Sequence record: NC_054894.1
DNA length: 49,526 nucleotides
Source of the DNA: Escherichia phage Henu7
Reading direction: 5' to 3' (one strand)
The notes under the pieces are model-generated. The model was not told the origin of the DNA. It was given only the letters and a program-made list of their open reading frames with translations, and did no database searches. Of the stretch, positions 4,060 to 34,018 are shown piece after piece. Made by a program: the position numbers and the translations under genes. Position 1 is the stretch's first letter, and the number at the start of each line of letters is the position of its first letter.

Positions 4060-4500
4060 TTAGCTATTTGTGCTGTTTATGAAGTCCGACTCTTTCACTA
4101 CGCGCAGCATTTCGTATCGGTCACATTTCGTCGTTAGCGCTTTGCCGTTTGAGTCAAATCTCAGATCTGGACGGCAGAATGAAGCGCGATAGCCCTTGCA
4201 GCCGTTTCGCTTATAGTCGGCGTGAACCTTTTCGGCTCCAGAAACGGAAATCATTCCGCGCTTGCGCCACTGCTGGATAACCTGGTGAGTAACCTTTAAG
4301 CGCCTTGTCATTTCTGCCTGAGATCCGTAATATTCGCAAACGGCATCCAGACGAGCACGCAATCCGGCTTTGACTTCATCCTTTAGAACGTAGTAGCCTG
4401 TTTTTCGCTTGCGCTTTTTCTTGTCCTTACCGCGCTTTACACCGTTGTTGCCATTGATTGTGCGCTTGTCAATTTCGCCAGTTGATGCAGCAATTTTCAT
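4060..4500 (-). CDS. helix-turn-helix DNA-binding protein (candidate early regulator)
   Basis: Start at ATG 4500 with GGAGG RBS; basic region KDKKKRKRK; HTH-like segment SQAEMTRRLKVTHQVIQQWRKRG. Confidence 0.55.
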   Translation of the reverse strand: MKIAASTGEIDKRTINGNNGVKRGKDKKKRKRKTGYYVLKDEVKAGLRARLDAVCEYYGSQAEMTRRLKVTHQVIQQWRKRGMISVSGAEKVHADYKRNGCKGYRASFCRPDLRFDSNGKALTTKCDRYEMLRVVKESDFINSTNS

Positions 4501-26215: not shown

Positions 26216-26241
26216 AGCCCCGCGTTTGCGGGGTTTTTTTG
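26216..26241 (+). terminator. intrinsic terminator ending rightward early operon
   Basis: Hairpin CCCCGCGTTTGCGGGG followed by TTTTTTT. Confidence 0.75.
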
Positions 26242-30501: not shown

Positions 30502-31617
30502 ATGAAAAAGGTACAGCGTTTTGATAGCGTTCAGGTGAAAGCAAAGATTGACGAGCACGGTTTTCTTGTAGACCGTCCGATTGTTGCCCGTATCGGATTG
30601 CAGGTTTACAAGACTCCGTTTGGAGAGCGTCGAGAGTTTCGCCCAGCCTCCGAGGTTTTCAAGGCTGACTCATTGGCTACGTTCTCAGGGAAGCCGATCA
30701 CAATCGGTCACGTAACAGTTACGCCGGAGAATGCAAAAGAGGTTGTAGTTGGTGCGTGTGCTGGCGCTGGCGTGCCAAACGGGATCGGCGTTGAGGTTCC
30801 GTTGAGCATTTACGACAAGCGAGCCATTCAGAGCGCGAAGGAAAAACAGACGGCGGAGTTATCGGTTGGTTACACCTCCGTTGATATTGATAAACCAGGT
30901 TGGGGTAATAATGCCACTGGTGAGTATTTCTTTGATGAAGATATGCCTGAGGGCTGGAAAGCTGACTCGGATGATTGGGTGCGATTCGATGCGGTTCAAA
31001 CGAATATCAGCGTGAATCATATCGCTATGGTGTTCAAAGGCCGCGCAGGTATCGCAAAATTAAATCTTGATAGCGAGCAGGAATTCCCGTATCATGACGA
31101 GGAATTTTCAAACAAAGAGGATGAAGTTATGACCGTAAAAATCAAACTGGACGGCGCTGTAGAGTTTGACGTGCCAAAAGAGGTGGCAGCTCACATCAAC
31201 GAGATCACCGCAAAAGCAGATGAAGCAACCGCAAAAGCTGACGGACTGGAAGCGGAGCGTGATGCACTGCAAGCGAAAGTAGACGGCATTCCGGCACAAA
31301 TCGAGGCTGCGGTTGCTCAGGCAAAAGCTGACGCAGAGGCGCACGCCGAACTGGTTGCGGTTGCTGGTGAGGCAGGCGTTAAGTGCGACGGCCTGGACGC
31401 AAAAGCGATCAAAGTTGCCTACGTCAAAGAGGTTACTGGCGCTGACATTGCAGAGAAAACCGACGCTTATATTGATGCGGCGTTTGATCTGGCGAAAAAC
31501 TCTGATAAAATGGCAGCACAGCGCAAAGCCATTAAAGGCGATGCAGAGAAGCAAGAGAAGCAAGACGGCGAAGATAAACCGCTGAATCCTGCGGCTCGTT
31601 TGGCTAAAGTACAGTAA
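30502..31617 (+). CDS. capsid scaffolding protein (possible protease-scaffold)
   Basis: Ala/Lys/Glu-rich coiled-coil C-terminal half, position before capsid genes. Confidence 0.45.
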   Translation: MKKVQRFDSVQVKAKIDEHGFLVDRPIVARIGLQVYKTPFGERREFRPASEVFKADSLATFSGKPITIGHVTVTPENAKEVVVGACAGAGVPNGIGVEVPLSIYDKRAIQSAKEKQTAELSVGYTSVDIDKPGWGNNATGEYFFDEDMPEGWKADSDDWVRFDAVQTNISVNHIAMVFKGRAGIAKLNLDSEQEFPYHDEEFSNKEDEVMTVKIKLDGAVEFDVPKEVAAHINEITAKADEATAKADGLEAERDALQAKVDGIPAQIEAAVAQAKADAEAHAELVAVAGEAGVKCDGLDAKAIKVAYVKEVTGADIAEKTDAYIDAAFDLAKNSDKMAAQRKAIKGDAEKQEKQDGEDKPLNPAARLAKVQ

Positions 31618-31629
31618 GGAGAAATAAAC

Positions 31630-32109
31630 ATGGCAATTCCAGCAACTTATCAAGCTACAATGGCACGCGCACTGCCTGGCCAGGTATCCGACACCTCAGC
31701 TTATAACATCGACGGCGCTTGCGTTCTTGACGGCAGCGCGAATGTGTTCGTTGGCGTAGCGGTTCAGAATGGCGGCGTTGATTCTATGGGTAACAAGCTG
31801 ATCAAGCCTATGGCATCCGGCGGCGCAGCTTACGGCGTGGCGATTCGCTCCCACTTCCAGACAACTTCCGCTGATGGTCGAATGGTTTACGTGCCTGGCG
31901 GCGGGATCAACGTAATGAACGAGGGTCGCGTTTGGATGCTGGCTGTAGATGGTCAGACTCAACAGCCATATGGCACTGCGATCAAGGTTGACGAATCTAC
32001 TGGTAAAGTAGATACCACTTCCGGCACTGTAGAGCCGAACTGGATCGCAACTGGCGACTTCACTGAGTTTGACGGCCTCAAGCTGATCGAGGTACAGGTT
32101 AAACCGTAA
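31630..32109 (+). CDS. capsid-associated structural protein, paralog A
   Basis: Shares motifs GRVWM and ATGDF with the next ORF; RBS AAGGAGA. Confidence 0.4.
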   Translation: MAIPATYQATMARALPGQVSDTSAYNIDGACVLDGSANVFVGVAVQNGGVDSMGNKLIKPMASGGAAYGVAIRSHFQTTSADGRMVYVPGGGINVMNEGRVWMLAVDGQTQQPYGTAIKVDESTGKVDTTSGTVEPNWIATGDFTEFDGLKLIEVQVKP

Positions 32110-32113
32110 TAAA

Positions 32114-32141
32114 CAGGGCGCTCATTGAGCGCCTTTTTTTA
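32114..32141 (+). terminator. intrinsic terminator
   Basis: Hairpin GGCGCTCATTGAGCGCC followed by TTTTTTT. Confidence 0.7.
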
Positions 32142-32153
32142 TGGAGGTGTTAA

Positions 32154-32615
32154 ATGATTGATTACGGAGTCATTTCTGGATGCGCAAATCCTGGGTATCT
32201 CGTTGATTCTACGATAAGCGTTATAAACGGCGGCGGCGTTGTATATGGCGATGCTGTTTTCCCTGGGTTTGCCGTGTCTCACTACGGGATTATTGATAGC
32301 TGTCACACATACGGTCAATTTGATGGTGATCGAGCCGCTTGCGGTATTGTGATCGCAGGTAATGAAATTTGCGTTGAGGATGGAATACCTAACGGGGAAG
32401 CTTTGAGCGTTTTAGTTAAGGGCAGAGTTTGGGCTGTAATGCTTTCAGATGAAGGAGCGCCGAGAGAGGGCGATAGCGTCATGATCTCAGATGGTGGCGT
32501 GATAACTTCACTCGCTGAGCGGTTCATTCAAGCCCCTAGAGGCTGGGTATTTACCGGAGACTACGAGAAATTTTCTCATGATCTATCACTAGTTGGCGTG
32601 TGGATTACCCAATAA
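32154..32615 (+). CDS. capsid-associated structural protein, paralog B
   Basis: Motifs GRVWA and FTGDYE parallel the preceding ORF. Confidence 0.4.
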   Translation: MIDYGVISGCANPGYLVDSTISVINGGGVVYGDAVFPGFAVSHYGIIDSCHTYGQFDGDRAACGIVIAGNEICVEDGIPNGEALSVLVKGRVWAVMLSDEGAPREGDSVMISDGGVITSLAERFIQAPRGWVFTGDYEKFSHDLSLVGVWITQ

Positions 32616-32634
32616 CATAAAAACATATTGCACG

Positions 32635-32654
32635 TTTAGCAAAAAGTGCTATCA
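32635..32654 (-). promoter_or_regulatory. palindromic element (inverted orientation) plus hairpin upstream of major capsid gene
   Basis: Plus strand reads TTTAGCAAAAAGTGCTATCA, then hairpin GGCTGTTAATCGCTAACAGCC, RBS AAGGAGA. Confidence 0.4.
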
Positions 32655-32696
32655 TTGAGGCTGTTAATCGCTAACAGCCTTTAAGGAGAAAGAAAC

Positions 32697-33659
32697 ATGA
32701 CTAAAAAGTATGACGAATTTGACGCTAGCGTAGTTACCGCTCACCTGCAAATGCAGGGCGTTAAGGCTGACGCTTCCGACATGGGTATCTGGACTGCGCA
32801 GGAGCTTCACAAGATCCGCTCCTCTGCATACGAAAAAGAATACCCTGTAGGCTCCGCACTGCGTGTGTTCCCTGTCACCAACGAACTGAGCGACACGGAT
32901 AAGACTTTCGAATACCAGACTTTCGATAAAGTTGGCTACGCGAAAATCATCGCAGACTACACCGACGACCTGCCAACCGTTGACGCGCTTATGTCTACTG
33001 AGTTTGGTAAGGTGTTCCGCCTGGGTAACGCGTTCCTGATCTCCATTGACGAAATCAAAGCGGGTCAACGTACTGGTAAGAGCCTGAGCGCTCGCAAGGC
33101 AAACGCCGCGCAGAATGCTCACGATCAGCTTGTTAACTTCCTGGTGTTCAAGGGTTCCAATCCGCACAAAATTCTGAGCGTGTTTGATCACCCTAACCTC
33201 ACCAAGATTGTTGCGGCTAAACAGTGGTACGACTCAAGCACCAAGACGAAAGAGCCAGAGCAAGCTTTCGACGATCTGACTGCGGCAATCGAAGCGCTGG
33301 AAACTCAGACCAATGGGCAGCACCGCGCAACCCACATTCTGATCCCTCCAAGCGTGCGCAAAGTCCTGACGGTTCGCATGGAAAACACTACTGAGAGCTA
33401 CCTGGAATACTTCCAGAAGCAAAACGGCGGTATCACCATTGAAGCAATCGCAGAGCTTGAAGATATCGACGGCTCAGGCGGCAAGGGCGTACTGGTGTAC
33501 GAAAAAGATCCAATGAATATGTCCATTGAGATCCCTGAGGCATTCAATATGCTACCAGCGCAGCCTAAAGACCTGCATTTCAAAGTGCCTTGCACCTCTA
33601 AATGCACTGGCCTGACAATCTATCGCCCGTTAACTCTTGTGTTAATCACTGGCGTGTAA
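32697..33659 (+). CDS. major capsid protein
   Basis: 320 aa, strong RBS, dedicated upstream unit and strong downstream terminator; position in head module. Confidence 0.55.
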   Translation: MTKKYDEFDASVVTAHLQMQGVKADASDMGIWTAQELHKIRSSAYEKEYPVGSALRVFPVTNELSDTDKTFEYQTFDKVGYAKIIADYTDDLPTVDALMSTEFGKVFRLGNAFLISIDEIKAGQRTGKSLSARKANAAQNAHDQLVNFLVFKGSNPHKILSVFDHPNLTKIVAAKQWYDSSTKTKEPEQAFDDLTAAIEALETQTNGQHRATHILIPPSVRKVLTVRMENTTESYLEYFQKQNGGITIEAIAELEDIDGSGGKGVLVYEKDPMNMSIEIPEAFNMLPAQPKDLHFKVPCTSKCTGLTIYRPLTLVLITGV

Positions 33660-33664
33660 TATCA

Positions 33665-33700
33665 TGGGAGCCTCTTTGGAGGTTCCCTTTTTTTTTATTC
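33665..33700 (+). terminator. intrinsic terminator
   Basis: Hairpin GGGAGCCTCTTTGGAGGTTCCC followed by T10. Confidence 0.7.
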
Positions 33701-33713
33701 AGGAGATAAAGTA

Positions 33714-33986
33714 ATGGCTAAAGAAAAAAATGTAACACTTGTAAACTCTGGCGTTTGCTCAATTTTCATCAAAGGTGATCGCTATGTTCCAGGTGATGAA
33801 ATTGAAGTCCTTGAGTCGGATCTGGAAACTTCCGGCATTGAAATGTTGATCGCTCGCGGCGATCTGAAAGTTAAGAACGACGAAGAAAAGACCGAAGAAG
33901 TAAGGGAGCGCGTTACCAAGCGCAAGAAAGCAAGCCCAACCGAGGGCAAGACGAAAAACGAGCTTGAGGACGGCGGCGAGTTTTAA
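33714..33986 (+). CDS. hypothetical Lys/Glu-rich protein flanked by two terminators
   Basis: RBS AGGAGA; terminators on both sides. Confidence 0.5.
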   Translation: MAKEKNVTLVNSGVCSIFIKGDRYVPGDEIEVLESDLETSGIEMLIARGDLKVKNDEEKTEEVRERVTKRKKASPTEGKTKNELEDGGEF

Positions 33987-33991
33987 TAACA

Positions 33992-34018
33992 AGGGAGCCT
34001 ATGCTCCCTTTTCTTTTA
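33992..34018 (+). terminator. intrinsic terminator
   Basis: Hairpin GGGAGCCTATGCTCCC followed by TTTTCTTTT. Confidence 0.65.

Follow-up and report, generated by a model that had tools for sequence, protein, structure and literature searches.

Why should a phage carry two consecutive genes for related small proteins, with a terminator between them, just upstream of its major capsid gene? The question is raised by positions 31,630 to 32,615 of the genome of Escherichia phage Henu7 (NC_054894.1), a stretch of 49,526 nucleotides that we refer to below as the window. An earlier note, made from the letters of the sequence, had described here two open reading frames (ORFs) of 159 and 153 amino acids, ORF1 and ORF2 hereafter, and had taken them for duplicated capsid decoration or cement proteins with possibly different copy numbers. 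The answer that we consider likely is that ORF1 and ORF2 encode the pair of cement proteins of a T1-like capsid, that a single duplication older than the diversification of the sampled T1-like phages gave rise to them, and that they have the roles and the dosing proposed below. This type of system is already known from phages T1 and FCWL1 (2025), which largely explains the observation. What we observe here concerns the paralogy of the two genes, their membership of a family and of its classes, their synteny, the conserved terminator- and promoter-like signals around them, and purifying selection. We call c1 the class of the first cement gene (T1 gp49 type) and c2 that of the second (T1 gp48 type).

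31630-32109, + strand: ORF1, predicted major cement (decoration) protein of 159 amino acids, c1 class; counterpart of T1 gp49; PF22758
32154-32615, + strand: ORF2, predicted minor cement paralogue of 153 amino acids, c2 class, beta-tulip core only; PF23982 and c2 profile

The coordinates of both ORFs are confirmed, and the gene downstream is identified as the capsid gene by PF09950 and phrog_264. The motifs that the ORFs were said to share are present (EGRVWML in ORF1 and KGRVWAV in ORF2; ATGDFTEFDG and FTGDYEKF, respectively), and the pairwise alignment proposed as a check of their paralogy is significant: BLASTP joins residues 7-157 of ORF1 to residues 4-151 of ORF2, that is most of both proteins, with 28% identity over 158 columns (expect value, E = 4e-6). 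Both ORFs match phrog_1989 and both exceed the gathering cut-off (27 bits) of two cement families of Pfam: PF22758 (Phage_cement; ORF1 94.2 bits, ORF2 32.2 bits) and PF23982 (XM1_gp53_minor_capsid; ORF1 53.9 bits, ORF2 68.3 bits). These are the sole Pfam families matching either protein at E up to 0.1. A ribosome-binding site (RBS) precedes each gene, with a strong Shine-Dalgarno sequence, AAGGAG, before ORF1 and GGAGG before ORF2. ORF1 and ORF2 are thus assigned by their sequences to the phage cement family, and the interpretation of the pair as tandem paralogous cement proteins is supported.

The respective identities of the two proteins emerge from comparison with other phages. The pair was sampled in 29 T1-like loci from IMG/VR, in three GenBank phages and in T1, and the order protease - c1 - c2 - capsid gene was found in all of them (29/29 loci, the three GenBank phages and T1). 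Two distant relatives (L031 and L032) have a single cement gene between the protease and capsid genes; among the loci compared, a tandem cement pair that would divide the labour is confined to the T1-like ones. With T1 gp49, ORF1 shares 47% identity (E 1e-43), and a search of PDB sequences relates it to the 158-amino-acid cement protein of T1 and FCWL1 (9kzj, 9kmg, 9kmh; E 4e-39). The best PDB sequence match of ORF2 is the 255-amino-acid T1 gp48 (9kzj_H; phmmer E 4e-7), gp49 coming with E 3e-3. Hidden Markov models (HMMs) of the two classes, built without the window's own clade, give ORF1 256.9 bits as c1 against 89.5 bits as c2, and ORF2 114.8 bits as c2 against 34.1 bits as c1; with leave-one-out models the assignment was right for both genes in 15 of the 15 other genomes. 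In a neighbour-joining tree all c1 sequences, ORF1 included, form one clade, and ORF2 groups outside it with the other c2 sequences, a topology that fits one old duplication. The classes also differ in the position of a PG motif, found at residue 16 in ORF1 and 13 in ORF2 and, throughout the 18 genomes (18/18, T1 included), at residues 16-17 in c1 and 13-14 in c2. This offset matches the difference in N-terminal arms seen in the T1 structure. On this evidence ORF1 is predicted to be the major cement subunit of the T1 gp49 type, and ORF2 falls in the gp48 class of minor subunits.

Structure prediction, another check suggested by the earlier note and carried out for ORF2, brings this protein closest to the T1 gp48 cement protein. 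The AlphaFold2 model (predicted local distance difference test, pLDDT, 63; predicted template modelling score, pTM, 0.67) is nearly all beta-strand, and its top Foldseek match is again 9kzj_H (E 4e-4, probability 1.00, template modelling score, TM, 0.49). Probability is also 1.00 for T1 gp49 and for FCWL1 chains, and further matches are XM1 (7kmx), BB1 and Pam3 (8hdt). ORF2 comprises a full-length beta-tulip core carrying the invariant residues of the cement family. At the sequence level a word-indexed search for homologues of ORF2 returned just 4 close clusters, and an exhaustive search of representatives returned 14 (clusters at 50% identity), twelve of them of cement type. Clusters P0129 and P0130 (1835 and 1958 amino acids) are bacterial adhesin-repeat proteins (SdrD_B; Big_9, cadherin repeats) and were discarded as chance or compositional matches.

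What the two proteins would do can be read from the T1 head. In a T=7 lattice a hexon touches one icosahedral threefold site and five quasi-threefold sites, of which two are penton-adjacent. The T1 head is a T=7 structure with 415 gp47 subunits, on which sit 80 homotrimers of gp49 together with 60 heterotrimers in which one gp48 is combined with two gp49; this makes 360 copies of gp49 and 60 of gp48 (PMC11945409). Both proteins have the beta-tulip fold, as in lambda gpD and TW1 gp56; the N-terminus of gp49 reaches the inner surface of the capsid and is embedded there, gp48 being located outside only; and gp48 ends in a flexible projection (residues 154-255), to which the authors tentatively attribute a part in adsorption (PMC11945409). 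A figure legend of the same paper shows six trimers with one hexon and one penton, four being homotrimers and two heterotrimers (PMC11945409). If the six trimers occupy the sites around that hexon, the legend and the geometry of the lattice together fit heterotrimers at the vertex (penton)-adjacent sites. The portal-vertex entry of FCWL1 (9kmh), which holds five chains of the gp48 homologue, agrees with this placement.

By homology with T1 and FCWL1, both Henu7 proteins would be present in the virion and would form 2:1 heterotrimers. ORF1 would be the abundant subunit, whose trimers clamp the threefold and quasi-threefold junctions between the capsomers of a T=7 head, and ORF2 the rare one, replacing one ORF1 in one class of 60 trimer sites as gp48 does. 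Counting suggests that these 60 sites are those touching the twelve vertices, a location that we infer from geometry. Each head would thereby hold about 360 ORF1 and 60 ORF2 copies; the different copy numbers that the earlier note had envisaged are very probably real, being supported by the cryo-electron microscopy of T1 and extended to Henu7 by homology. The task of ORF2 would most likely be geometric, residing in the odd subunit position and in the shorter N-terminal arm, and host adhesion would be an unlikely function: the protein has no Ig (immunoglobulin)-like projection, which itself makes a geometric task the most likely conserved one.

The organization of the signals around ORF2 is consistent with such a minor role. 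The terminator said to separate the two ORFs was found in the gap of 44 nucleotides between them, as a hairpin (AGGGCGCTC-ATT-GAGCGCCTT) followed by a run of T. The transcription signals of the unit are as follows.

32115-32142 (hairpin 32115-32135), + strand: intrinsic-terminator-like hairpin and T-run; pattern scan; RNAfold -13.9 kcal/mol
32628-32655, + strand: promoter-like element before the capsid gene, with -35 TTGCAC (32628-32633), extended -10 TG (32647-32648) and -10 TATCAT (32650-32655)
32659-32679, + strand: conserved hairpin GGCTGTTA-N5-TAACAGCC between the promoter-like element and the capsid RBS; -13.1 kcal/mol
33666-33696, + strand: terminator-like hairpin and T-run after the capsid gene, closing the unit; pattern scan; -17.4 kcal/mol; T1 equivalent annotated as a terminator

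A hairpin and T-run follow the first cement gene in 30 of the 30 loci inspected, for each of the seven stem pairs (7/7) one or more of 12 aligned sequences have both bases changed in a compensatory way, and the RefSeq record of T1 places a rho-independent terminator between its genes 49 and 48. On the other side of ORF2, the promoter-like element is nearly invariant in 13 aligned relatives, T1 included, and its conservation far exceeds that of ORF2. The palindrome TAGCA-N5-TGCTA (32637-32651) lies within it; the full 28-mer occurs once in the window, and its core is a copy of a genome-wide motif described below. We take this element for a putative promoter of the capsid gene. The hairpin that follows it shows compensatory changes in 5 of its 8 pairs across 13 relatives, and its T-run counts three T here and six in T1 and FritzSarasin. 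The expected start point of the putative promoter falls inside the 5' arm. This hairpin could be a 5' stem-loop of capsid transcripts, or else a stop for upstream read-through. Located between a terminator and a restart promoter, ORF2 would lie in a pocket of low expression and be made only from transcripts reading through the terminator. Such a transcriptional dosing, which we infer from the layout, is consistent with a low copy number and with a need for six times less ORF2 than ORF1.

T1 gp48 bears an Ig-like projection, and ORF2 lacks it. A Pfam search of ORF2 found no match to Big_2, and the protein ends at residue 153. This short form is common: c2 has 143-168 amino acids in 24 of the 29 loci, and 260-269 amino acids with Big_2 in 4 of the 29. 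The longer form occurs in four of the twelve cement-type clusters retrieved with ORF2, and Ig-bearing members include c2 of FritzSarasin (260 amino acids with Big_2), T1 gp48 and FCWL1 gp29. In the c2 tree they are dispersed, which suggests repeated gain or loss of the domain. As most c2 proteins are devoid of it, the Ig-like domain is the mark of a sub-type and not of the class, and the conserved function of c2 most likely resides in the core. A particular case is phage IsaakIselin (L002, MZ501077, 2659-3365), where an in-frame TAG, codon 166 of c2, falls precisely at the junction of the beta-tulip core with an otherwise intact Ig-coding part. Enterobacter phage AS5 (L034, 801-1520), 96% identical, has GAA at this position and an uninterrupted c2 of 239 amino acids; 3' of the TAG, 4 synonymous changes and no non-synonymous one separate the two genes. 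The TAG may be either a very recent truncation or a site of translational read-through or suppression. An ORF of 71 amino acids annotated in IsaakIselin was considered as the product of a frameshift and rejected, the Ig-coding part lying in the same frame directly after the TAG; the annotated ORF, in another frame, is probably spurious. The Ig domain is dispensable, to judge from the many short c2 forms, from the dispersal of the Ig-bearing ones in the tree and from the viable phage IsaakIselin, which has a stop at the boundary of the domain.

The two cement genes evolve under constraint. Among five close relatives, the ratio of non-synonymous to synonymous substitution rates (dN/dS) is 0.10-0.31 for ORF2, 0.10-0.20 for ORF1, 0.04-0.14 for the capsid protein and 0.01-0.04 for the protease: ORF2 is under purifying selection, yet it is the least constrained of the four genes. 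ORF2 diverges much faster than ORF1: over the family, c1 proteins share 65.5% identity on average and c2 proteins 39%. The mean amino acid distance of the capsid protein is 0.17. A foreign origin of ORF2, as a moron, was sought in its composition and found no support there, the content in G and C (0.46-0.49, against about 0.50 around it) bearing no foreign mark. Comparison with IsaakIselin reveals a mosaic structure, with nucleotide identity of 95-100% over most of both flanks and of 37-78% over the cement genes (about 31660-32612). The right-hand break coincides with the conserved promoter-like element and its palindrome, where identity recovers. The IsaakIselin proteins are 66% (c1) and 35% (c2) identical to those of Henu7, beside a capsid protein that is 100% identical. 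As the break spans both cement genes and leaves the capsid protein unchanged, the two genes appear to be exchanged together, as a cassette.

Several points weigh against the identification of the pair as T1-like cement subunits with the proposed roles and dosing. Henu7 and the c2 proteins devoid of Ig domain are known here from their genes alone, and their role in the virion would follow by analogy. The identity of ORF2 to T1 gp48 is about 24-33% (33% over 91 residues by BLAST), and to pairwise BLAST gp48 (E 4e-8) and gp49 (E 1e-7) are nearly equivalent matches, so that the class of ORF2 rests on profiles, tree, gene position and the length of the N-terminal arm. The ORF2 model is of moderate confidence, with pLDDT below 50 for residues 1-35 and TM of about 0.5. 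A mirror-tree test detected no extra co-evolution between the two cement proteins, the c1-c2 correlation (r 0.58) being the same as the c1-capsid one (r 0.58). For the location of the rare subunit, the T1 paper contains no explicit statement that heterotrimers are penton-adjacent (PMC11945409). As for dosing, the hairpin between ORF1 and ORF2 looks like a strong terminator, and the -35 hexamer TTGCAC of the putative promoter, which the pattern scan did not list, agrees with the consensus at 3 of 6 positions.

The dosing proposal meets its most serious competitor in the idea that copy numbers are set by assembly alone, 60 sites accepting ORF2, with the hairpin acting in operon punctuation or messenger RNA stability. 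Similar hairpins do occur several times in the head cluster (after the capsid gene and after the gene of 90 amino acids that follows it), so that the one between c1 and c2 may not be peculiar to the pair. Yet every relative has the terminator at this very place, after c1 and before c2, with compensatory changes in its stem, and the conserved promoter-like restart before the capsid gene is the layout expected for a low output of ORF2. Assembly alone, without dosing, thus seems to us somewhat unlikely, while deserving to be kept in mind.

Morons are often located between a terminator and a promoter. This is where ORF2 lies, and the closest GenBank record labels it 'hypothetical protein'; as it also evolves faster than the neighbouring genes, it might be a decaying or accessory duplicate, either a truncated remnant of gp48 or a moron serving another purpose, and no component of the capsid. 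We find this very improbable, as dN/dS values of 0.10-0.31 are those of a constrained protein, c2 is present in 29 of the 29 T1-like loci, and ORF2 combines a full beta-tulip core and its invariant residues with a good RBS and a homologue in the T1 capsid. That the two ORFs encode scaffolding proteins, as the names of some homologues would have it ('Scaffolding protein SbcC like', 'putative scaffolding protein'), is contradicted by the data and hardly worth entertaining: the sole Pfam families matched are cement families, the homologues sit on the outside of mature T1, FCWL1, XM1 and Pam3 capsids, and the nearly all-beta model of ORF2 departs from the helical type typical of scaffolds. A finer question is whether ORF2 could be in the virion and be used otherwise than gp48, in homotrimers of its own at some of the sites, or at the portal vertex or the pentons only, instead of as 60 copies in 2:1 heterotrimers. 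Its divergence from gp48 (33% over 91 residues), its lack of the Ig domain, a mean identity of merely 39% in the c2 class, and the fact that the PDB search found the FCWL1 homologue of gp48 confined to the portal-vertex entry 9kmh (5 chains) all lean in this direction. A different use is nonetheless improbable, for ORF2 and gp48 have class, gene position and short N-terminal arm in common, and the 60 heterotrimers of T1 are distributed over the entire icosahedral head (PMC11945409).

We therefore retain the reading of ORF1 and ORF2 as major and minor cement subunits of a T1-like capsid. A broader view, which joins the preceding observations, is put forward tentatively, as plausible without being probable. 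Here the c2 protein devoid of Ig domain, the majority form among the sampled T1-like phages, would be conserved because it solves a local symmetry problem, by supplying one subunit with a short N-terminal arm to each vertex-adjacent trimer, and not for host adhesion. The Ig domain would be an optional addition, repeatedly gained and lost; the cement genes would form an exchangeable cassette on an unchanged capsid protein; and the dosage of ORF2 would be fixed by the terminator together with a restart promoter, the latter bearing a palindromic operator that recurs genome-wide. In practical terms, ORF2 and its relatives can now be named as minor cement subunits. Public names of c2 proteins are misleading, and include 'HtjA', 'HdeC', 'putative zonula occludens toxin', 'putative scaffolding protein', 'peptidase', 'capsid fiber protein' and 'hypothetical protein'. 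That the core, and not the Ig domain, appears to be the conserved need refines the functional idea drawn from the T1 structure. Moreover, the swap of cement genes on an identical capsid in IsaakIselin, together with the tolerated stop at the Ig boundary, suggests that the C-terminus of ORF2 is where T1-like phages would naturally lend themselves to capsid display.

The pair lies in a conserved genomic context. The window of 49.5 kb corresponds approximately to an entire T1-like siphophage genome (Drexlerviridae, Henuseptimavirus), circularly permuted with respect to the record of Escherichia phage JohannLBurckhardt (Bas11 of the BASEL collection; Drexlerviridae, Tempevirinae, Henuseptimavirus). 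Over 3 kb around the pair, identity is 98.6% to this phage and 97.4% to Klebsiella phage Samwise. Rfam and tRNA scans of the whole window gave no matches. The immediate neighbours of the pair are the following.

30502-31617, + strand: prohead protease gene, left neighbour; PF09979 (DUF2213) E 4e-26; phrog_530 (head maturation protease) E 2e-109
32697-33659, + strand: major capsid protein gene (HK97 fold); PF09950 E 1e-53; phrog_264 E 8e-104

The counterpart of the protease gene is labelled as such in the JohannLBurckhardt annotation, and its C-terminal half is often labelled 'capsid and scaffold'. The capsid protein, which would be the surface where ORF1 and ORF2 sit, is identical in amino acid sequence (100%) to that of JohannLBurckhardt as well as that of IsaakIselin. 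Directly 3' of its gene, a gene of 90 amino acids (33714-33986; DUF7444, phrog_2716), counterpart of T1 gene 46, is flanked by terminator-like hairpins at 33666-33687 and 33991-34010; the T1 gene 46 product is outside the set of proteins modelled in the T1 structure paper.

The palindrome found before the capsid gene belongs to a repeated motif of 19 nucleotides, TTTTARCAAAAAGTGCTAT, which reads as TAGCA-N5-TGCTA, an inverted repeat whose spacer is AAAAG or ATTCG. The window contains 11 copies with at most 2 mismatches, where 0.01 are expected, and 17 with at most 3. There are 10 copies in T1 (L033) and 18 in JohannLBurckhardt, the motif is also found in locus L035, and its location is nearly always intergenic.

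Starts of the motif in the window: 4514, 7006, 8475, 8816, 14471, 15775, 16605, 16945, 18307, 19334, 20737, 21705, 23206, 24208, 28382, 2957, 32634

In 13 copies, the opposite strand carries a -10-like hexamer (TATAGT, CATAAT, TATAAT), always at the same offset from the motif and pointing along the flanking genes; this puts the centre of the palindrome at about -42, and a conserved CA(A/T)CGAAACGAA leader comes next. The motif had been considered as a set of antisense promoters, an idea rejected once these in-register hexamers were found on the opposite strand. The copy in the capsid-gene promoter is disposed differently, with the palindrome between -35 and -10, its centre at about -18, and the conserved hairpin following. 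This geometry, against about -42 in the early region, hints at opposite regulation. A third geometry is seen at the lateral tail fibre gene, again a late structural gene: the degenerate copy CATTAACAAAACGTGCTAT (2957-2975, - strand) is downstream of the TGCTATAAT extended -10 and just before the RBS. Together these copies look like the operators of a single phage regulator, whose mode of action would differ between early and late genes; a protein of 146 amino acids (4063-4500, - strand), with only sub-threshold matches to Cro/YdaS helix-turn-helix domains, is a candidate for it. No description of the motif was found in the literature searched. Another kind of signal occurs at 26226, 40428 and 42564 (+ strand), where a G-rich stretch and a T-run (GGGGTTTTTTT-like) run into an extended -10 (TGnTATAAT or TACAAT). 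The G-rich stretch and T-run may be the 3' part of a terminator hairpin, in which case these sites would be terminator-promoter junctions starting the terminase and tail gene blocks.

Set against known systems, the Henu7 pair has relatives at several distances. Both ORFs score above the thresholds of PF22758, which is represented by E217 gp24 and Pam3 gp6, and of PF23982, represented by XM1 gp53; the names of these families cite one protein per phage (E217, Pam3, XM1), whereas Henu7 has two. Lambda gpD and TW1 gp56 resemble T1 gp49 and gp48 in forming trimers with a beta-tulip fold at the threefold sites of a T=7 capsid of HK97 fold (PMC11945409). Lambda gpD has no detectable sequence similarity to the pair and is absent from the top 50 Foldseek matches of the ORF2 model, and lambda, unlike the T1-like phages with their pair, has one decoration protein that forms homotrimers only. 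T4 Hoc and T5 pb10 expose an Ig-like domain on the capsid surface, as do the Ig-bearing c2 proteins (T1 gp48, FritzSarasin); ORF2 has no such domain, and the analogy is therefore inapplicable to it. The closest systems are those of T1 (9kzj) and of the near-identical FCWL1 (9kmg, 9kmh), where the gene order is protease - cement 1 - terminator - cement 2 - capsid, as here. Trimers on threefold and quasi-threefold sites are known for these two phages, whereas our knowledge of Henu7 comes from its genes. ORF2 has in common with T1 gp48 an N-terminal arm shorter by 3 residues and the beta-tulip fold of cement proteins; it differs in ending where the modelled core of gp48 (residues 2-153) ends, without the Big_2/Ig-like part (154-255). 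The Henu7 results leave the basic picture of 2025 unchanged, and add to it a minor subunit devoid of Ig domain as the common state in the family, a conserved bracket of terminator and promoter, and the exchange of the cement pair as a cassette.

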